Shown one piece after another: positions 1-35,660 of a stretch of 35,660 bases of DNA. The stretch's first letter is position 1. Each line of letters begins with the position of its first letter. This DNA comes from a virus, in UHGV virus genome UHGV-0200663. One strand, written 5' to 3'. The position numbers and the translations under genes are program-made. The notes beneath the pieces are model-generated. The model made no database searches. It saw only the letters and a list, made by a program, of their open reading frames with translations, and was not told the DNA's origin.

Positions 1-114
1 AGCGGCGCACGAAAAACGCGAAAACGTTTCACGATAAATGCGAAAACTTTACTTTTCGCGCTTCAAACGAAACAGCGGCATTGACCGCTGTTTTTTTTTA
101 TTCATTAAGTGGGA
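1..114. repeat. Prophage right end (attR) with repeated CGAAAA-containing transposase-binding-like motifs
   Basis: Repeated motifs ACGAAAAACGCGAAAAC and TGCGAAAAC in the first 60 nt; lies between mom stop (115) and the prophage terminus. Confidence 0.7.
72..99. terminator. Hairpin plus T-run at the prophage right end; T9 follows on plus strand, A-run precedes on minus strand (possibly bidirectional)
   Basis: ACAGCGG-CATTGA-CCGCTGT followed by TTTTTTTTT on plus strand; located just beyond the mom 3' end. Confidence 0.5.
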
Positions 115-840
115 TCACTTCGGGTATGGCTGAACCCTGAATAGCTTGGTGTTTAGGCGCTTTTTTGCGCGCTTATTCAGGAATCTGATGTAGCGATACT
201 GATTAAATTTGTGTACCACGGCCCGCTCCTTATTAGCCCGTAAATACACACCTCGTTGCCCTCCGCGCTTAATCGCGTTCATCGCTATCTCGTGATACCA
301 CTCGCCGTCCAGTTCGTAGAACGTGCTTTCGTGGCTGCCTATAAAATCAAAATTCGACGCCTGATATACCACGCCAGCACGTCCGCAGCGTTCGTCTGCA
401 AAAGACTGAACCCACTCAACTGACGGATACAGTAACCTGATGGTTTTCAGCGCGTAACTGATGGCCCGTGATTCAGAGTTGCGGGGCATGTCGTCGTGTA
501 GCCACATGCGATTCAGTTCCATATAGCCCCGGTTATCCGTTTCAAGCACGACCCGACGCCCTGAGTTGGGGTTAAGGGCATATCCCCACTGAAGAACGCC
601 AACCAGATCACGTCCGCTGAATACGCCAAGATGCAGGTAGGAGTTATTCACAAAACGGCGAGAATAGTGTTTTGTCTGAATGATTGTGCGGGCCAGCCAG
701 CAGGATATGGTTTCAACGCGCAGCTCCTTTGAACCATAGCCGACAATCCGGCCTTCATACTCAATAACGCAGGGTTTTGTCAGAATGCGTGATTTCTTCT
801 CTTTTCCCACAATACAGCTCCGTGGGATGCTCTTTGGCAT
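115..840 (-). CDS. mom: Mom-like DNA modification protein (adenine carbamoylmethylation, anti-restriction)
   Basis: Terminal gene position next to attR, immediately after and overlapping com, as in Mu. ATG at 840 (MPKSIP...); the ORF-track start at 852 is TTG. Confidence 0.75.
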
Positions 841-946
841 TCGATATGACAATGTAACGTTTACAGCGAGGGCATTTAATTTCTATATGCTTAAAACCTC
901 CTTTAAACAGTAATTTATTGCAGTTTTTACAGCGAACAGAGTCCAT
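761..946 (-). CDS. com: Com zinc-finger translational activator of mom
   Basis: [15 protein letters not shown]...[14 protein letters not shown]...[16 protein letters not shown]: four-Cys zinc finger matching Mu Com from recall. Start taken at second in-frame ATG (946); overlaps mom start by about 80 nt. Confidence 0.8.
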
Positions 947-973
947 GATTCCCCCTGTGTAATAACCAGACAT

Positions 974-1069
974 GAGCGCCCGGAGGGCTGGGGGTATTTA
1001 ATCACAATTGATGCAAACCGACGATCGATATGATGTTATCGATCGTCATAAACTATACATACTGATTAT
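974..1069 (-). promoter_or_regulatory. mom operon regulatory region with GATC-containing perfect inverted repeat (Dam/OxyR-type control region as in Mu Pmom)
   Basis: GACGATCGATA-TGATGT-TATCGATCGTC at about 1020-1047 carries two GATC sites; lies directly upstream of com on the minus strand. Confidence 0.55.
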
Positions 1070-1672
1070 TTAATCACCGACAGTTAACGCTCTCACCTCG
1101 TCCAGTATGGACAGCCGGGAAAGCTGCTCCTTCATTTCACGCTGGCGCTGATAAATCCCGTCATTGCGATCGACCTGTGCCTGCGCCATTGCTGTCGCCA
1201 GTTCTTCCAGTTCCGGCATTGACAGTTTCACCTGTTGATTATCGGCGTCACCCCACGTCATCACGTCCCGCGCTGTGTCAGATTTCGCCGCCATTACCAC
1301 AGGATAAAGACGGGCCAGTGAGTCGGGGCCAGCGTTCCAGGTGCGACCGTTCCATTCGAACGTGAACGGCTGCGCTTCCTGTTCTGTGCGCCACGCCTCG
1401 ATTTCCATCTTTTTGGCATCTTTTGCCGCTGCGATAAGCTCCGGCGTGATGGTGAACGGGGCGATTTCGCCCCATTTGCCGCTTTGCAGTTCCTGCCAGA
1501 TGCGCTTACCGATTGTTGATGTATCATCAGGAGTGGCAGTGTAAGGGACTGGCTGCGGCTGGCCGTCAAACCAAACGTCACAGTCTACAGCGCTATTTTC
1601 TGTATAGCGGGGATTAATGATTTCTTTGATTTCCACGATGCATTCCTCACGCTGTGCGAATAAAAAGCCCAA
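1070..1672 (-). CDS. Tail fibre assembly chaperone (second cassette)
   Basis: Immediately downstream of the long fibre gene. ORF-track start at 1672 is TTG; a GTG at 1636 preceded by GAGGAA is a plausible true start. Family call is by position and size only. Confidence 0.5.
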   Translation of the reverse strand: MGFLFAQREECIVEIKEIINPRYTENSAVDCDVWFDGQPQPVPYTATPDDTSTIGKRIWQELQSGKWGEIAPFTITPELIAAAKDAKKMEIEAWRTEQEAQPFTFEWNGRTWNAGPDSLARLYPVVMAAKSDTARDVMTWGDADNQQVKLSMPELEELATAMAQAQVDRNDGIYQRQREMKEQLSRLSILDEVRALTVGD

Positions 1673-4600
1673 TCATCGCGTCGGAACCATAGGTGTTTGT
1701 TACCCCGGACAGGGCGCGATATGTACCCGGTAATGAATGACCTGCATTTCCCATAACGTAGAATTGCGGGCTTGATGAATACGTTCCGGCTGGATTGTAG
1801 GGCGCTGAAATTCCCACCGGCCCCAGCCGTGAGCCTGCGTAATATTGCCCTCTCACAAGCTTGATTTTTGTATCTCCGTCAGTCGTTCCCTGGTATGCAG
1901 CAATAATCAGTCCACCAACATCAGGGTCTCCCCACTCATTGCTGATGGTCCCCCCCATAACATTATAAATATCGGCTGTGGATATCTTTATTCGCTCCCA
2001 GCCAACAAGACGCCCGTAAATATATCGGTTAAACCAGATATCACCGTTTCCTGCATAAAACATTATGCATTTTGCAGCATCTGACGGGGGCTTTGTTTCG
2101 TACTGGTTCATCTGCCAGATAACATCAAGAATACCCGTAAAATAAACACCAGGTATGATTGTTCCCTGATTAGGGACGGTTACCGCATAACGTCCCGGAT
2201 AAGCGTTTGTTACCCACGTGGTCAGCTCCGATGTGTTTTTAAAGGTGAGCTGGTCTTCTTTTCCAAACGGATAACCAAATCCGAATGCACCAGGAAGAGC
2301 CAGTTTATCTTCCGCCCGGTCATAAATATCACTCTGGGCGCTGTACGTATTCTTTTGCAACTCAAGAACAGACAGCATGTCTTCCGCTGTAGTCTGAGCA
2401 AGCAGCAGCCGGGCTTTTTCTGACAGTGGAGACAGTGAAGCATTCCCGTCCTGATTAAAGCACAGAAGATTATCTGCCCGTTGCGTCAGTTCACTGATAG
2501 CCGTCAGCACATCGTTCAGCGGTTGTTTACCGGCCAGCGCGTTCATGATTGTCGTCGCAAAGTTCGGGTCATTACCCAGCGCCGCTGCCAGCTCGTTCAG
2601 CGTGTCCAGGGCTTCCGGTGACGAGTCAACCAGTGCAGCAAGCAGTTTGCGGACAAACGCCGCATTGGCTATTTCATTACCTGCTGCATCATCTGGTGGT
2701 GTTGGCGTGGACGGCGTTCCGGTCAGTGTCGGACTGTTCAGTGGCGCACGGGTTTCAATCAGTGCCCGGAGTGAAACCTCGTTGACTTTCAGGTTTTCCC
2801 AGCCAACCAGATAACCATCTCCGGTAGTCCAGTAGCGATTGTAATAAATGTGGCCGTTAATACCGTAAAAAATAATGATTTTAGCCACACATGCCGGATT
2901 GGGGTTGGTTTGAGGTTCCGGCCAGATAATTTCAACGGTACCCTTGAACAGCACGCCCTGTATTACCGCATTTGTATCTGCATAAACGGCATAGCGTCCG
3001 GGTTTTGCCGTTTTTACCCAGCGGAGAAAATCGGCCTCTGTTTTAAACTCGGTCCTGTCGCCGCTGGAAAATATTTTCCCGAATCCGAACATGCCAGGAA
3101 CCGCCAGACGGCCTTCGGTGCGGTCGTAAATACTCTCCTGCGCATCCTTTTGTGCTGCATTGCCCAGTTGTGGCGTCAGATTCGTCCAGGTGACCGGGGC
3201 GGAGATATTATCGCCACGAACGGTCATAAGAATCCGTCCGTCTTTTCCAAAGAACAGAACCAGCTTTGTTGCTGTCTGACTGGTTTTGTCGCCCCGGCCA
3301 TTATCCAGCCAGATAATTTCTGTTATTCCGGTTGTTTTTTCCGTTTGTGTGGAAAAGGTGTAATACCGTCCCGGGTGCAGGTTGTGAGCGGTTCTGGCTA
3401 CAGTCGCCATATCGCTGGCAATAATTGAACGTGCTCCGGCGTCCGTCATTCCGTAACCATACGCACCGGGAAGCGCAACACGGCCTTCCATGCTGTCGTA
3501 AAGGTCTATCTGAATATCCCTTACCGCTGCGCTTTTCAGCTCAAGCTCATTGCGCATGGCTTCCGCTGTGGCCTGTGCCAGCAGTGACCGGGCTTTTTCT
3601 GACAGCGGAGACAATGAAGCATTTCCGTCATGATTAAAGCACAGAAGATTATCTGCCCGTTCTTCCAGATTACTGATTGCGGTTAACACGTCACTGAGTG
3701 GTTGTTTACCCGCCAGCGCGTTCAAGATTGTTGTCGCAAACTCCGGGTCATTGCCCAGCGCCGCTGCCAGCTCGTTCAGTGTGTCCAGGGCTTCCGGTGA
3801 CGAGTCAACCAGCGCAGCAAGCAGTTTGCGAACAAATGCCGCGTTCGCCATCTCCAGCCCGGTCGCATCGTCCGGCGGGGTTGGTGTGGTGGGCGTGCCG
3901 ATGAATGCCGGGCTGTCCAGTGGCGCTTTTGTTTTCGTCTCGTCCATGACGGTTTTGACGGCTTTTGGCGTGGCGGCCAGTTCTTCGCTGTCGTTGTCTG
4001 TATCACTACAGAGTTGCACCAGGCCTTTTTGCGTCGTGCTGGCGTTGGTTCCCTTCAGGTCATCAACTATCCGTTGCGCCTCGTCCCTGTGCTGTTTCGC
4101 GCTCTGCTCGCTTTTTGCTGCCGCTTCGGCGCTGGCTTTTGCCTCACCGGTCAGCGTTGCGGCATCAGCAAGTTTATCGACCGCTTTCTGGACTATCTTA
4201 TCGGCATCTTTGACCGCCTGTTCTGCCCGGGCGGCATTCTGGTTGGTCTCAGAGGCCAGCTCTTCAGCTTTCTGCACATTACCCGCGATTTCTTCTGCAT
4301 CCTGCTGTATTTCCCCGGCGAGCGCTTCTGTATCCTGGCGGGCCTGTTCAGCAGCGGTGGCGTGCTCTCCTGCTTTTTCTGCGCTTTGCTGCGCCTGTTG
4401 CGCCAGCTCTTCGAATTTCTTCAGGGCTTCCGGGCGCAGGTCAATATCGGTTGCGCCCAGAAAATCATTCAGCGAACCGTCCGCTGAATCTTCATAAACG
4501 CGGATGACACCGATTTCTGAAAGGCGCTGTGTGCTTTGTGTCAGGCGAACGCTGTACACACCCGGCAGAACGGTGAAGTCATATTCCCCGTTCTGTGTGG

Positions 4601-4721
4601 TGACATGGCTGAAAACACTTTTCAGAATCCCTGCACGGTTGTGCAGGGAGGTCAGTGTAATGGTTGCGCCACCCAGCGGTTCTCCCGTGGGCGTTTTAAT
4701 CACACCTTTAAGCTGCGGCAT
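1647..4721 (-). CDS. Long tail fibre protein, lambda Stf / P2 H family, with internal repeats
   Basis: N-terminus (..GVYSVRLTQ..IRVYEDSADGSLNDFLGA..RPEALKKFE) resembles the lambdoid side-tail-fibre N-terminal domain. Two copies of ATPKAVK..KAPL.SP..GTP.TPTPPDD..ANAAFVRKLLAALVDSSPEALDTLNELAAALGNDP..ATTI.NALAGKQPL. Three xxEGRLAxPGxFGFG modules. ATG at 4721 with GGAG 8 nt upstream. Confidence 0.8.
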   Translation of the reverse strand: MPQLKGVIKTPTGEPLGGATITLTSLHNRAGILKSVFSHVTTQNGEYDFTVLPGVYSVRLTQSTQRLSEIGVIRVYEDSADGSLNDFLGATDIDLRPEALKKFEELAQQAQQSAEKAGEHATAAEQARQDTEALAGEIQQDAEEIAGNVQKAEELASETNQNAARAEQAVKDADKIVQKAVDKLADAATLTGEAKASAEAAAKSEQSAKQHRDEAQRIVDDLKGTNASTTQKGLVQLCSDTDNDSEELAATPKAVKTVMDETKTKAPLDSPAFIGTPTTPTPPDDATGLEMANAAFVRKLLAALVDSSPEALDTLNELAAALGNDPEFATTILNALAGKQPLSDVLTAISNLEERADNLLCFNHDGNASLSPLSEKARSLLAQATAEAMRNELELKSAAVRDIQIDLYDSMEGRVALPGAYGYGMTDAGARSIIASDMATVARTAHNLHPGRYYTFSTQTEKTTGITEIIWLDNGRGDKTSQTATKLVLFFGKDGRILMTVRGDNISAPVTWTNLTPQLGNAAQKDAQESIYDRTEGRLAVPGMFGFGKIFSSGDRTEFKTEADFLRWVKTAKPGRYAVYADTNAVIQGVLFKGTVEIIWPEPQTNPNPACVAKIIIFYGINGHIYYNRYWTTGDGYLVGWENLKVNEVSLRALIETRAPLNSPTLTGTPSTPTPPDDAAGNEIANAAFVRKLLAALVDSSPEALDTLNELAAALGNDPNFATTIMNALAGKQPLNDVLTAISELTQRADNLLCFNQDGNASLSPLSEKARLLLAQTTAEDMLSVLELQKNTYSAQSDIYDRAEDKLALPGAFGFGYPFGKEDQLTFKNTSELTTWVTNAYPGRYAVTVPNQGTIIPGVYFTGILDVIWQMNQYETKPPSDAAKCIMFYAGNGDIWFNRYIYGRLVGWERIKISTADIYNVMGGTISNEWGDPDVGGLIIAAYQGTTDGDTKIKLVRGQYYAGSRLGPVGISAPYNPAGTYSSSPQFYVMGNAGHSLPGTYRALSGVTNTYGSDAMIGLFIRTA

Positions 4722-5238
4722 CGGGACGCTCCGGCCAGTTGATGGAGTAAAAGGAGGCTTCGTCAGTAACGGTGCTTAAATCCAGAGCCTTTACCGCTTT
4801 GATATATGCCATCCACTGCGTAAGACGCGCTTTATCATCGTCGCTGATGGTGCCCAGCTCCAGCTCGGTTTTCCAGTCGGAGGTGATGTCCTTCGCTTCA
4901 TTCAGCAGGCTCTGGCGTTGTTTTTCTGCCAGTTGCGAATAATCAACAGGAACCGGCAGCACTTCGCCGTCTTTGTAATACCAGCAGGCTTCAATGCCAA
5001 AACCTTCCGGCAGTTCATCCACTTCCACAATGGTGAAGCCAGCCGGATAAAGACGGGACACGTCTTCCGCCATTGAATAAATCACGCCGGTTTCCGGGTG
5101 AATACACAATTTGTATTTCTTCGTGAATTTATCCAGTGATTCATAAAAATCCTGTCCGTCTTCACTGCGGAAATACTGAATGTTTTCACCATAAGGCATC
5201 TCTTCCGGGTAATAACGCGTGACGTTTCTGAGTTCCAT
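4708..5238 (-). CDS. Tail fibre assembly chaperone (U-like, first cassette)
   Basis: C-terminal ..FYSINWPERP motif typical of tail fibre assembly proteins. ATG at 5238 preceded by AAGGAG; the ORF-track start at 5274 would overlap the upstream gene. Confidence 0.65.
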   Translation of the reverse strand: MELRNVTRYYPEEMPYGENIQYFRSEDGQDFYESLDKFTKKYKLCIHPETGVIYSMAEDVSRLYPAGFTIVEVDELPEGFGIEACWYYKDGEVLPVPVDYSQLAEKQRQSLLNEAKDITSDWKTELELGTISDDDKARLTQWMAYIKAVKALDLSTVTDEASFYSINWPERPDAAA

Positions 5239-5252
5239 TATTTTCTCCTTAA

Positions 5253-6062
5253 TTAGCCGGATACCGTGCGCCATCCGCCATTGATATAAATCTGAGTTTG
5301 TTTGTAATACACGCCGCCGATGTTATCCGCAGAGCTCCTGCCAGTATCCTGAACGTTAATACCTGACAAAATACAACCTGAAGGCGCGCGAAATACCCAG
5401 GAAATTTCGTTACCACCGGGATTGTGAAACACTTCGCTGGTGTATCTGAAATCACGCACAGCGCCGGAATCGGTGCTGCTGATGGTGATATCGCTGGTGC
5501 CATCAAACAGCACATTGTTAATCCTGCGGGCCGTCTGAAGCCGGGTTGCCGTTCCGGCATTGCCACTGATGTTGCTGATGGTGATATCCGAAGACAGGGC
5601 CATGCCGTTGACCCTGCGGGTATTCGGTACAGCACTATTAGCTTTATTTACCGTGTCACGTAATGAAAGTGCGTCGATAATTTCACTGGCTGTGTTTTTC
5701 CCGAGAATACCGCGCACAAAAGCACTGAGCGGCGTTAATGCCATTGTGTCTTCGCCCGTAAAATACGGGAACGTATTATTCTGACCGGTTAATCCGGCAA
5801 TAGCTCCGGCTGAACCACTGTTCGTAATAAACAGTTTTTTCAGCGCCGTCATAATCTGGTCGGTGGTGTTTTTATCCGGTTTGATATTTGCCTGCCGGAG
5901 AATTTCCAGCAGTTCGGACTGAATAATATTAAACCAGTCCGGCCCCGGATAGGTGGGCGGAATACCATTCCCGCCTTCGGTAAAATAAAGCGTTGTTTTG
6001 CTTAATTCAGCCGCGACAGGTGGCATCACCGGCACACCCGTCGGATTATCCACATGAAACAT
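5253..6062 (-). CDS. Short tail fibre protein (Mu S / P2 H-like)
   Basis: N-terminus MFHVDNPTGV...; internal FPYFTG motif and C-terminal ..YINGGWRTV resemble P2 H / Mu S family fibres. ATG at 6062 with GGAG upstream. Confidence 0.65.
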   Translation of the reverse strand: MFHVDNPTGVPVMPPVAAELSKTTLYFTEGGNGIPPTYPGPDWFNIIQSELLEILRQANIKPDKNTTDQIMTALKKLFITNSGSAGAIAGLTGQNNTFPYFTGEDTMALTPLSAFVRGILGKNTASEIIDALSLRDTVNKANSAVPNTRRVNGMALSSDITISNISGNAGTATRLQTARRINNVLFDGTSDITISSTDSGAVRDFRYTSEVFHNPGGNEISWVFRAPSGCILSGINVQDTGRSSADNIGGVYYKQTQIYINGGWRTVSG

Positions 6063-6065
6063 AAA

Positions 6066-6650
6066 TTATTCTCCGGTGTAATAATATTCATATTCCGTGC
6101 CCGCCAGCCGGTAATGCTTCAGCAGGCATTCCAGCTCGCGGGTCCGTTCACTGATTAATGGCGTCATGACGTCATCAATACAGGTAAACCGCCCGGCATC
6201 TTTATCCGGGACTTCCACTTTCAGCATCCAGCGATACCGCGCCGGATGCAGCGGATACATGCAGTCGCGCAGGCAGTGGTGCGGCAGAACGGCCGTCACC
6301 TTGATGGTGAAGCCCAGCGCCGCCGCAGCGGCTTCAATCTGCCAGGTTGCCAGCCCGCCCTTGCGGCGGTATTTCTCCACCACGGCCCGGCGGCGGGCTT
6401 CCGTTGTGGTGGCGGCAATTCCGCATTCCGGTAGCGCCAGATATTGCTCCCACTCCGGCAGCAGCTGGAGCGTGGTTTCCGGTCGCATCTCCACATGCAG
6501 ACGCGAGGCGTCGTATTCAACGCGGGTTAAACGCTCTGCAAGCGCCCTTAAAAAACGGTTTAAATCCGCGTCGTTATCACGCGGCCATGCCTTACCCCGT
6601 GGCATGACCTGTTGCAGTGCGGTCAGCCATTCCGTCACGCTGTGAGCCAT
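6066..6650 (-). CDS. Tail/baseplate protein (Mu gp48-like)
   Basis: Position between baseplate J-like gene and fibre gene; ATG at 6650. Family call by synteny. Confidence 0.5.
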   Translation of the reverse strand: MAHSVTEWLTALQQVMPRGKAWPRDNDADLNRFLRALAERLTRVEYDASRLHVEMRPETTLQLLPEWEQYLALPECGIAATTTEARRRAVVEKYRRKGGLATWQIEAAAAALGFTIKVTAVLPHHCLRDCMYPLHPARYRWMLKVEVPDKDAGRFTCIDDVMTPLISERTRELECLLKHYRLAGTEYEYYYTGE

Positions 6651-7711
6651 GTCACCTCCCCGATGGTGATAAGCTCATCCACATCACTGGTAGTGTCTTC
6701 CCCGATGTTCAGGAAGTAGTCCGCGATGCCGGACGTCATACCGATGGCCGTGCGCAGCGAGGACACCGGCAGCATCTGACCGGGGGCCAGCGTTTTCTGT
6801 AATGCGGTCAGGTTTGCCCGGACGGCGTTCCTGTTCGCCTGGCTGTCCGGTGTCAGACGGATGGACAGGTCGAGTTTCTTCAGTCTGACCTGTACCGGCC
6901 AGACCTCGATGCCGCCCGGTTTGCCCACCATCACGCCGGTGGCAGGGTGTTTGTGGCAGAACAGATACTGCTCCATTGTCTTCAGGTCGTCGCGTGTGGG
7001 GATAATGTCTTCACGGTCATCATAAAGCCATGCCAGCCCGACCGTGCCGGGGCCGTGCCACGCATCCCACGCCCACGCGCGGCTGACACCCGGCACTTCA
7101 CGCGCCCAGATGACGTAATCATGCAGCGCACCGCCCACCGGGGGATTGCGGCGCACATACAGCAGACGGTCCAGCAGCTCTGCGATGGATTCGATATCTG
7201 CGCCGCCGGTGATGCCACTTTCAGTCACCGCGCCCGTGCTGCCCGTTCCGGGTAGCGGGGACAGCAGGGTCAGCACGGCACCGGCAGCAAGATTGCCCGC
7301 CACACCGGCTTCTTCAGCCTGCACGATGACGGTGACCTCGCCGTCCTGTACCTCGCCGGATGTGAGTACCTGATACACCTGATTCGTGTCGGACTGCATC
7401 CGGGTTTCTGCCGGAATGGGGGACTGACTGGTGAAGGTCACCGGCCCGCTGGCAAAGGTTGCCTGCTTGCGGATAACCCCTTCATACGTTGCTGTTTTGA
7501 TAATGGTTTCATCATCAGATGCGGTGGACGGGATTATCTGGTCCTTAATCCAGCTCTGATGGTCGTATAAATCCCGGACCTGACTGCTGAACGACACGTT
7601 CAGCGCCTGCTCAACACTGACAGGCGGCAGCTTTTGCAGACCGAGTTCATACGCAATATCTTTCTCGCCGTCGGCAATCAGCTTGCCCAGCGTGGGGATT
7701 TCATACGGCAT
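6635..7711 (-). CDS. Baseplate J-like protein
   Basis: 358 aa; size and position in baseplate module match Mu gp47 / P2 J-type baseplate proteins. Confidence 0.6.
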   Translation of the reverse strand: MPYEIPTLGKLIADGEKDIAYELGLQKLPPVSVEQALNVSFSSQVRDLYDHQSWIKDQIIPSTASDDETIIKTATYEGVIRKQATFASGPVTFTSQSPIPAETRMQSDTNQVYQVLTSGEVQDGEVTVIVQAEEAGVAGNLAAGAVLTLLSPLPGTGSTGAVTESGITGGADIESIAELLDRLLYVRRNPPVGGALHDYVIWAREVPGVSRAWAWDAWHGPGTVGLAWLYDDREDIIPTRDDLKTMEQYLFCHKHPATGVMVGKPGGIEVWPVQVRLKKLDLSIRLTPDSQANRNAVRANLTALQKTLAPGQMLPVSSLRTAIGMTSGIADYFLNIGEDTTSDVDELITIGEVTWLTA

Positions 7712-34859: not shown

Positions 34860-35199
34860 CAACCAGGAATCTAGCTAAAACACGCACTTTCCCTCAAGTA
34901 ACCTAGAGGGTAAGATACTGAAACAACAAAAGCTGTTTTTGATATACGTCATTCGCCAGAAGCCTGGTTGTTATCGGGTTTGAAGCGTTTTTGAAGCTGC
35001 AATTGAAATAATGCGTGAAGCAATTGCTTTTCGTATGTTTAATGAAACAAAAGCCATTTCTAACAATCTTTCGCGTTTCAATGCTTAACGGCTAAAATTT
35101 GCTCTACAGGCTTGCAAGCCCCACCAAATCTAATCCCGTCAAATCCCGAATAATCCAATATCCTCCCGGTTTTTTTCGTACTTCTCGTGAATCAATACA
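34860..35199. repeat. Prophage left end (attL) with transposase-binding sites
   Basis: Minus strand from 35199: TGTATTGATTCACGAGAAGTACGAAAAAAACC...; further CGAAA-containing repeats such as GTTTCATTAAACATACGAAAAG and GAAACGCGAAAGATTG. Confidence 0.75.
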
Positions 35200-35435
35200 G
35201 TGGCATCGACGTTGGAACCAAATCGGAAGTGCACCAGGTGTTGTTTGATATGGCGAAAAAGGGCGTGGCGGTGATCGTGATCTCCTCCGATCTGCCTGAA
35301 GTGATGGCGGTGTCTGACCGGATCATCACCCTTAGTGAAGGCCGGTTAACTGGCGAGATCCACGGTGACGACGCTAACGAAGAACGGCTGATGACGATGA
35401 TGGCTATCAACCACAACGCCCTGAAAGCGGCATAA
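35200..35435 (+). pseudogene. 3' fragment of a host ABC-transporter ATP-binding protein gene interrupted by the prophage
   Basis: Translation ..VAVIVISSDLPEVMAVSDRIITLSEGRLTGE.. is a typical ABC ATPase C-terminal region; the ORF-track start MNQYSG lies inside phage-end DNA, so the gene is truncated at the junction. Confidence 0.5.
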
Positions 35436-35446
35436 CGGAGTTTCTC

Positions 35447-35660
35447 ATGACGCAGATGATTCCTAAAACGCAGGTCCCGGTAAAACGCGTCGGACGCATC
35501 GATCCCATTGCCTTCTTCGAGCGCTTCGGGGTACTGATTTTCATGATCCTGCTGCTGATCTTCTTTCAGTCGCAGAACAGTAATTTTTTCTCTGAACGCA
35601 ATATTTTCAACATCCTGACCGAAGTCTCCATCTACGGGATCATGGCCGTGGGGATGACCT
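35447..35660 (+). CDS. Host ABC-transporter permease (5' part; continues beyond window)
   Basis: ATG 12 nt after the ATPase stop; hydrophobic N-terminal segments (GVLIFMILLLIFF; IYGIMAVGMT). Confidence 0.5.
   Translation, partial: MTQMIPKTQVPVKRVGRIDPIAFFERFGVLIFMILLLIFFQSQNSNFFSERNIFNILTEVSIYGIMAVGMT

Follow-up and report, generated by a model that had tools for sequence, protein, structure and literature searches.

The transposable phages Mu, D108, and SfMu change host range by Gin-mediated inversion of a G segment, which lies between gp48 and com-mom, contains an Sc-type docking domain, and carries U/U'-type chaperone genes. An initial annotation of the DNA studied here took such switching to be the norm for Mu-type phages, which is true of these three phages but not of Mu-like phages generally. 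Mu-like phages without gin have been on record since at least 2008, among them KS10 and BcepMu, which "lack this invertible G region" (PMC2628397). In KS10, the gene for a fibre of 325 amino acids (aa) is followed by that for a 742-aa putative host-specificity protein (PMC2628397). The UHGV virus genome UHGV-0200663, analyzed here over its whole length of 35,660 nucleotides (nt) and called the window below, is almost exactly one Mu-type transposable prophage of 35.2 kb with its genes on the minus strand. Like the Mu-type transposable myophages KS10, BcepMu, and Kp4866-3, this prophage has tandem fibre genes and no G region. Its fibre genes are found at positions 1070–6062. The slot between gp48 and com-mom, the Sc-type docking domain, and the U/U'-type chaperone are all shared with the G segment of Mu, D108, and SfMu. 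In the window, unlike in the G segment, the second fibre has another type of anchor and a chaperone from another family.

Two fibre–chaperone cassettes on one strand

The open reading frames (ORFs) that separate com from the gp48-like baseplate gene, together with their domains, showed two complete fibre and chaperone cassettes on the minus strand, in agreement with the initial annotation. The first cassette consists of fibre A (5253–6062, 269 aa, with its own TAA stop) and Tfa1, a chaperone of the Mu U and lambda Tfa type (4708–5238, 176 aa, ATG at 5238 after AAGGAG). The second consists of the Stf-like fibre B (1647–4721, 1024 aa) and the DUF4376 protein Tfa2 (1070–1636, 188 aa, GTG at 1636 after GAGGAA). 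Profile searches against Pfam and PHROG gave matches for all four proteins, and NCBIfam gave no informative name for any of the four. The two chaperones start later than in the mechanical ORF list. They were trimmed to codons behind good ribosome-binding sites. The same starts are found in RefSeq relatives and in gene calls made independently on a metagenome contig whose proteins are identical.

Each of the four genes has its own ribosome-binding site, and the genes overlap or nearly abut. The stop of Tfa1 overlaps the start of fibre B by 14 nt, with GGAG upstream of the latter, and no convincing minus-strand terminator was found between the four genes. For such packed genes, constitutive expression of both fibres, as the initial annotation had suggested, is the most economical reading, and co-transcription from the late tail operon would be the simplest assumption. 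In contrast to the G(+)/G(-) alternation of Mu, both fibres are encoded on one strand and would both be made. Because one late transcript would cover both cassettes, every virion would carry both fibre types.

On balance, the region probably encodes a portable receptor-binding module of four genes, which provides two constitutive fibres with different docking sites and no phase switching. Our statements about function are drawn from sequence, homology, and comparative genomics. Fibre A and its Caudo_TAP chaperone would form a baseplate fibre docked on the gp48-like wedge through a Mu-S-like N-terminal domain. Fibre B and its DUF4376 chaperone would form a second, independent fibre mounted through a PF08400 Ig-like collar domain. 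In this lineage, shifts in host range would come about when the distal fibre parts, but not the conserved anchors in front of them, are exchanged by recombination, or when fibre B is lost.

The closest described loci are those of phiP27 (L53, then L54–L57) and Rac-SA53 (rac64, then tail1–tail4). In phiP27, the order is wedge, fibre A, Caudo_TAP protein, fibre with an N-terminal PF08400 domain, and DUF4376 protein, with order and domains as in the window. The order and domains of the four-gene module are also the same in Rac-SA53, where rac64 occupies the position equivalent to gp48. Both elements are published temperate phages of E. coli whose tails have a baseplate J protein, and they are of the integrase type, unlike the transposable prophage studied here. 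Their baseplate proteins are distant or unrecognizable by BLAST against the window, and the N-termini of their A-type fibres are unrelated to that of fibre A. A scan of one genome per species with a single anchor sequence detected no locus, and a profile scan with an anchor alignment detected the four-gene module in a prophage of Yersinia similis. Since the latter scan gave a single locus, the species distribution is poorly sampled. The module thus stands behind three unrelated baseplate lineages. In our literature searches, no functional study of the phiP27 or Rac-SA53 fibres was found, nor any paper on the function of the module or on the attachment site of PF08400 fibres on a contractile tail.

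Because the module is present in published genomes and the lineage of the window in dozens of E. coli genomes, the dual-fibre layout is not a new replacement of a switch. It is the normal state of the whole lineage and is found in phages published earlier, phiP27 among them. This corrects the assumption that Mu-like means Gin switching, and reveals a second common solution in enterobacterial Mu-type tails, in which tandem fibres with different anchors are diversified by module exchange.

All searches for a Gin-type switch were negative. The best tblastn match of Mu Gin in the whole window had an E-value of 0.83, and the variable part of Mu S' had no significant match there. In the same search, Mu Mom, Com, gp47, gp48, S (N-terminal 200 residues, 32% identity), U (25%), and U' (31%) were matched, with the U and U' matches confined to the minus-strand Tfa1. 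Pfam detected no recombinase domain in the unassigned mid-size ORFs of the prophage. The 26-bp crossover consensus of the Gin/Hin family had zero matches with up to three mismatches allowed. Positions 900–6700 contained no long inverted repeat, the longest being 20 nt at 80% complementarity, and there were no simple-sequence tracts in the fibre region. Three of the four features of a G segment (gin, a pair of gix sites, and an inverted Sv'/U' pair) were therefore missing, and the fourth, the Sc docking domain, was present. The statement of the initial annotation that there is neither an invertase gene nor an inverted gene pair was thus confirmed, and its proposed check for gix repeats and a serine invertase turned up neither. 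Two plus-strand ORFs inside the fibre B gene (2850–3428 and 3751–4497) were rejected as genes and treated as antisense artefacts, because they had no Pfam match.

Could the choice of fibre still be switched, by a host invertase such as Pin of e14, by slipped-strand phase variation, or by differential translation? E. coli genomes often carry Gin-family invertases that could act in trans, and a related Sp18-like Mu-like prophage has a Gin homologue (75%) together with an inverted Tfa/Sv'. However, the window offers no gix-like site at three or fewer mismatches, no inverted repeat longer than 20 nt, and no simple-sequence tract for such a mechanism, and inversion could not alternate the cassettes because both are on the same strand. 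We therefore regard continued switching as very improbable.

Anchors of the two fibres

Fibre A matched the tail fibre family PHROG 1833 (E = 7e-108), with the alignment reaching the end of the profile. Its N-terminal ~80 aa are homologous to the docking domain of Mu S (gp49), residues 1–81 matching Mu S residues 1–81 in the structures 5yvq and 9ki1 (E = 1.4e-21). The C-terminal ~70 aa correspond to a common short-fibre tip, as residues 201–269 matched 9cuy_c, named "Short tail fiber" (E = 3.8e-13), and the last 73 aa are 77% identical to Rac-SA53 tail1. In the Mu virion, the N-terminus of S is anchored on the fibre-docking loop of gp48 (residues 133–155), and there are six trimeric fibres (PMC11915804). 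The expected docking partner of fibre A is the gp48-like baseplate wedge protein (BW3), which is encoded immediately upstream on the minus strand (6066–6650; Phage_Mu_Gp48, E = 4e-32) and is 31% identical to Mu gp48.

The initial annotation had described the 269-aa ORF as complete and had allowed that it might prove to be a truncated pseudogene. The ORF has its own stop, and several results rule out truncation. Of the six related prophages that we examined, only that of ETEC1734 has a fibre A of another length (259 aa instead of 269 aa). Members of the fibre A family in Escherichia, Shigella, and Salmonella typically have 253–343 aa; their N-terminal half is conserved, and the C-terminal one is exchangeable. 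The alignment to PHROG 1833 extends to the profile end, and the ratio of nonsynonymous to synonymous substitution rates (dN/dS) of fibre A against its relatives is 0.13–0.47.

Tfa1 belongs to Caudo_TAP (E = 8.8e-22). Over the full length, its identity is 25% to Mu U and 31% to Mu U', so that the U-like chaperone reported behind the short fibre was verified. It is 69% identical to Rac-SA53 tail2 and 30% identical to phiP27 L55, and its dN/dS is 0.11–0.20.

Fibre B contains the domains PF08400 (phage_tail_N, residues 4–130, E = 1.5e-26) and Phage_fiber_2 (residues 228–267), which, together with the DUF4376 match of Tfa2, upheld the description of a complete 1024-aa Stf-like fibre followed by a second chaperone. 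Its collar or anchor domain (residues 1–100; 4422–4721, minus strand) is an Ig-like beta-sandwich followed by a long helix. In phmmer searches, residues 3–187 matched the collar spike protein gp40 of phage XM1 (7kjk, E = 1.1e-9), and residues 3–90 matched a 94-residue tail-tip chain of Ur-lambda (9e7m, E = 1.1e-8). A model of residues 1–135 had a predicted local distance difference test score (pLDDT) of 75. Its top Foldseek match was the Ur-lambda chain 9e7m_Ta (38% identity, template modelling score 0.84 on the target), followed by the XM1 neck chain 7kjk_A3 (28% identity), the A-1(L) neck fibre 8keg_a (21%), and then the tail-tip collar fibres of Bxb1. The collar domain was matched with E-values of 2e-7 and 2e-6 and a probability of 1.0.

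In all four solved structures matched, the PF08400-type domain binds tube or neck proteins as a ring. In solved virions, the collar domain rings a narrow cylinder of the tail, which in the myophage XM1 is the neck (PMC10457771). In our comparison with the PDB, the ring was located at the distal tube in the siphophage Ur-lambda and at the neck in A-1(L). Ur-lambda Stf combines a PF08400 collar domain with a Phage_fiber_2 repeat, as fibre B does. It is an accessory long fibre beside the primary receptor binder and speeds adsorption, and lambda Stf is dispensable in the laboratory (PMC12617516). Lambda differs in being a siphophage, in which the collar is situated on the exposed tube at the gpV/gpM junction, whereas this region is covered by sheath and baseplate in a myophage. 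The downstream gene also differs, being a DUF4376 gene here and a Caudo_TAP-type assembly protein gene for lambda Stf.

The other comparison is with XM1 and A-1(L), simple phages with a contractile tail, in which the long, trimeric neck fibres begin with an Ig-like domain homologous to that of fibre B. XM1 has six gp40 trimers, each attached to the neck by an N-terminal Ig-like domain of ~100 residues, which is in contact with the connector and terminator proteins (PMC10457771). The distal parts of the XM1 and A-1(L) fibres are unrelated to that of fibre B, and the gene product numbering of XM1 (gp40 compared with the wedge gp16) suggests that its fibre gene lies apart from the baseplate genes, unlike in the window.

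Because both solved myophages have the fibre at the neck, and the lambda-type site would be buried on a sheathed tail, we tentatively prefer the neck as a possible attachment site of fibre B. A broader picture, which we consider doubtful, would be two-tier adsorption through six short fibres at the baseplate and long fibres anchored at the neck, lineage-wide and by extension in P27-type phages. In it, the distal module of the long fibre would be freely swapped for other tips or, in E. coli STEC719, for a separate SGNH esterase. If true, this would be the first neck-fibre system recognized in a Mu-like or enterobacterial temperate myophage, and the lambda Stf anchor would be a universal plug for ring-shaped tail sites. 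T5, like Ur-lambda, is a conceptual parallel in having a primary fibre and an accessory long fibre, and XM1 is a parallel in anatomy.

Branched receptor-binding complexes occur in phages G7C and CBA120, and in a similar arrangement the short protein of the window would be a baseplate adaptor to which the long fibre is attached. The two fibre genes are adjacent and in the same order at all loci seen, as this explanation would predict, and myophage fibres are usually larger than the short protein. However, fibre A has its own chaperone, and its tip is homologous to the distal ends of other short fibres and varies between prophages (78–98% identity), as for a receptor binder. The anchor of fibre B is a ring-forming collar domain that is bound to tube or neck in all four solved examples, and a prophage of the 23CRST050 type keeps fibre A and Tfa1 without fibre B. 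A branched fibre is thus improbable. Kp4866-3 differs from the window in that both of its fibres have the same S-like anchor, whereas the two anchors differ here; since both carry an S-like N-terminus, the Kp4866-3 fibres would compete for one docking site.

Behind its anchor, fibre B has a duplicated shaft and knob region (2354–3832, minus strand), in which two 300-nt copies (2354–2653 and 3533–3832) form a direct repeat with 85% identity and a spacing of 1179 nt. There are three knob units of ~125 aa, a 52-nt motif occurs in three copies, one at the start of each unit, and the translation shows a repeated "SPEALDTLNELAAALGNDP" collar motif. The duplication is old and did not arise recently in the window, because Rac-SA53 tail3 and the ETEC1734 fibre share this architecture. 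Fibre B is 65.5% identical to tail3 over the full length and 78% identical to the ETEC1734 fibre. In a protein comparison with phiP27 L56, the identity was 35% in the anchor and 30–43% in the distal part.

Tfa2, a member of DUF4376 (E = 3.5e-17) and PHROG 1141 (E = 1.3e-85), is 82% identical to phiP27 L57 and 78% identical to Rac-SA53 tail4, and is presumed to be the chaperone of fibre B. DUF4376 proteins are listed as tail-fibre chaperones in the Alteromonas phages V22 and A5 (PMC10579305).

Conservation in E. coli and mosaic origin

Among 5426 complete E. coli genomes, 49 covered at least 80% of a gp47–gp48 DNA query, nearly all at an identity of at least 90%. We inspected six members of this lineage in detail. 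Their insertion neighbours differ (pduF/pocR, ddp, a FUSC-family gene next to yhcO, flhA, irp1, and another prophage), as would be expected of a transposable phage that is active. In five of the six, the order is short fibre, Tfa, PF08400 fibre, distal gene or genes, and com. In these five, identity to the window is at least 98% for gp47 and gp48, 92–98% for Tfa1, 78–98% for the short fibre, and 67–84% for Tfa2. Their long fibres have between 301 and 1037 aa and differ in the distal parts. The dN/dS of gp47 and gp48 is 0.02–0.06 against close relatives (at least 95% identity) and up to 0.16 against the 23CRST050 type. All four module genes are under purifying selection (dN/dS about 0.1–0.47), with values of 0.16–0.23 for the fibre B anchor and 0.21–0.33 for Tfa2.

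The first 135 aa of fibre B are 83–98% identical within the lineage and 41–42% identical to the anchors of phiP27 and Rac-SA53, which resemble each other. Beyond the anchor, in the shaft and tip shared with Rac-SA53, fibre B is 65% identical to tail3. This pattern fits co-evolution of the anchor with the virion to which it belongs, together with exchange of the modules distal to it. Because a lineage-specific anchor is joined to an exchanged shaft, fibre B would be a genuine virion component. The border between conserved anchor and variable distal part marks natural swap points, which is useful for host-range prediction and fibre engineering, and the assignments are useful for annotation, as PGAP labels are generic ("phage tail protein", "prophage tail fiber N-terminal domain-containing protein").

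An alternative, which we consider unlikely, is that recombination with a lambdoid or P27-like prophage brought in fibre B and Tfa2 as passengers, which may or may not be expressed but do not enter the virion, so that only fibre A functions. The shaft of fibre B and Tfa2 are most similar to proteins of other prophage types (65% to tail3 and 82% to L57), with up to 89% nt identity over 1.8 kb, and the cassette has been lost or broken in some members of the lineage. A single fibre gene is also enough for two structural relatives, Vibrio phage martha 12B12 and Shewanella phage MuM16-2. However, a passenger should carry the anchor of its donor, and the anchor here is lineage-specific (83–98% compared with 41–42% to the putative donors). 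The dN/dS values of the anchor and Tfa2 given above, the overlap of the fibre B start with Tfa1, and the recurrence of the module behind three unrelated baseplate lineages also argue against a passenger.

Several observations nevertheless weigh against a module in which two fibres are both used, and against the neck as the site of the second. The E. coli 23CRST050 prophage, the sixth one inspected and a deleted variant, has no more of the long fibre than a remnant of 113 aa. Seven records (H35, H36, H37, H38, H40, H41, and SA53-3) show a short pattern with 41–43% coverage, suggesting the same deletion as in 23CRST050. STEC1575 has a fibre B pseudogene and SA53-3 an IS3 insertion, and fibre B is dispensable for prophage persistence. 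That both fibres are incorporated into virions we infer from sequence, and for fibre B this counts against the proposal. Homology does not settle the neck site, because the collar is closer to lambda Stf (38%) than to XM1 gp40 (28%), and the neck proteins of the prophage (181 aa and 203 aa) had no sequence match to the XM1 chains or in the PDB. The AlphaFold model of the fibre A monomer had a pLDDT of 44.8 and was unusable.

Two members of the lineage differ in ways of their own at the fibre end. In 23CRST050, gp48 is longer, with 324 aa, and between it and the short fibre there is a gene for a protein of 352 aa without a family match, which may be another way to add a second receptor binder. 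In E. coli STEC719, the PF08400 protein has 301 aa, consisting of the anchor and a coiled coil only. Downstream of it come an ORF of 100 aa, a gene for an SGNH/GDSL hydrolase of 456 aa, and what is left of the DUF4376 gene (50 aa), suggesting a split fibre with an esterase in place of the fibre tip. A different Mu-like phage, inserted in the Stx1a phage LC727895, has an S-like short fibre that is 39% identical to fibre A, an inverted Tfa with an alternative fibre end, and a Gin homologue (75% to Mu Gin). A 680-aa SASA-esterase/DUF6645 protein is encoded after this Gin homologue and before com. An additional gene for receptor binding or an esterase immediately before com is thus a recurrent feature of Mu-like prophages in E. 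coli.

Comparison with Mu showed the features of a Mu-like transposable phage, namely Mu ends, an early region with A and B, contractile tail and baseplate genes, com-mom, and varied insertion sites. The early region (35199–28897) is ~88–89% identical to Mu at the nt level by blastn. Its first part (35199–30658), which covers c, ner, A, B, and kil, is 89% identical to Mu 1–4539, and the com-mom-attR region (936–1) is 88% identical. The alignments extend to Mu positions 1 and 36714, in support of the Mu-like ends, transposition genes, and com-mom recognized in the initial annotation. The structural genes showed only scattered patches of 65–73% identity to Mu DNA in blastn. The mosaic is sharp, as hardly any similarity to Mu is seen at the DNA level in the genes for lysis, head, and tail.

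The gp47-like baseplate J protein (6635–7711, minus strand; Baseplate_J, E = 1e-58) is 56% identical to its counterpart in Klebsiella phage Kp4866-3, 50% to that in martha 12B12, 49% to that in MuM16-2, 38% to that of Mu, and 30% to phiP27 L52. The first three, which are the nearest isolated relatives by baseplate, all lack gin. In martha 12B12 and MuM16-2, the fibre end is a single fibre or esterase gene on the same strand, and MuM16-2 ends with an SGNH hydrolase tail protein. Kp4866-3 has two fibres of 251 aa and 585 aa encoded on the same strand, with a 291-aa Tfa-domain protein between them, and both fibres start with a Mu-S-like docking domain.

The prophage is therefore a mosaic with Mu-like ends around a different Mu-type structural module. 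Because this module belongs to another Mu-type lineage, whose relatives lack gin, it probably never had a G segment. The proposal of the initial annotation that a G segment had been replaced could not be maintained, since the structural module is not that of Mu (no DNA similarity overall, gp47 38%, gp48 31%). A recent module swap, which it had also suggested, is not supported for the element, whose layout is lineage-wide. Support exists only for recent exchange of the distal part of fibre B, which differs between prophages that are otherwise 98–99% identical.

Ends and neighbouring genes

Position 1 of the window is 3 nt inside the Mu-type right end and aligns with Mu 36714 of 36717. The right end (attR, 1–60) was identified from sequence and blastn against Mu, and in the left end (attL, 35150–35199) position 35199 corresponds to Mu position 1. 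The mom gene (115–840, minus strand; Pfam Mom, E = 3.6e-75) encodes a protein 96.7% identical to Mu Mom over 241 aa. The com gene (761–946, minus strand; 61 aa, Zn_ribbon_Com) encodes a protein 72.6% identical to Mu Com and agrees with an independent call of a 61-aa gene. The mechanical com ORF (761–973, 70 aa, from 973) is probably overlong, as the alignment to Mu Com begins at 946, an ATG is found there after GGGGGAA, and relatives and the independent call have 61 aa.

The intergenic region between Tfa2 and com (974–1069, minus strand) contains a GATC palindrome. Similarity to Mu begins again here, at the right-hand junction of the mosaic. The palindrome, a perfect 10-bp inverted repeat ACGATCGATA-N6-TATCGATCGT with GATC sites at ~1021–1050 just upstream of com, is kept in related prophages and aligns with a GATC cluster upstream of Mu com. 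We take it to be probably the Dam/OxyR-sensitive part of the mom promoter. The region with this palindrome abuts the end of the DUF4376 gene.

Pfam matches of other ORFs in the prophage included Gp36, Mu_F, Gam, and a Mu DNA-binding domain, and a PF07409 GP46 gene was called on the contig encoding identical fibre-module proteins. Host DNA occupies 35200–35660, directly beyond the left end at 35199, and contains the part of a sugar-type ABC transporter ATPase gene that encodes the C-terminus, and then the start of the next gene. On the metagenome contig with identical fibre genes (ENA ERZ19650192), a 439-aa N-terminal part of an ABC ATPase is located on the mom side. Parts of an ABC ATPase are thus found on either side of the prophage, which therefore appears to interrupt that gene.

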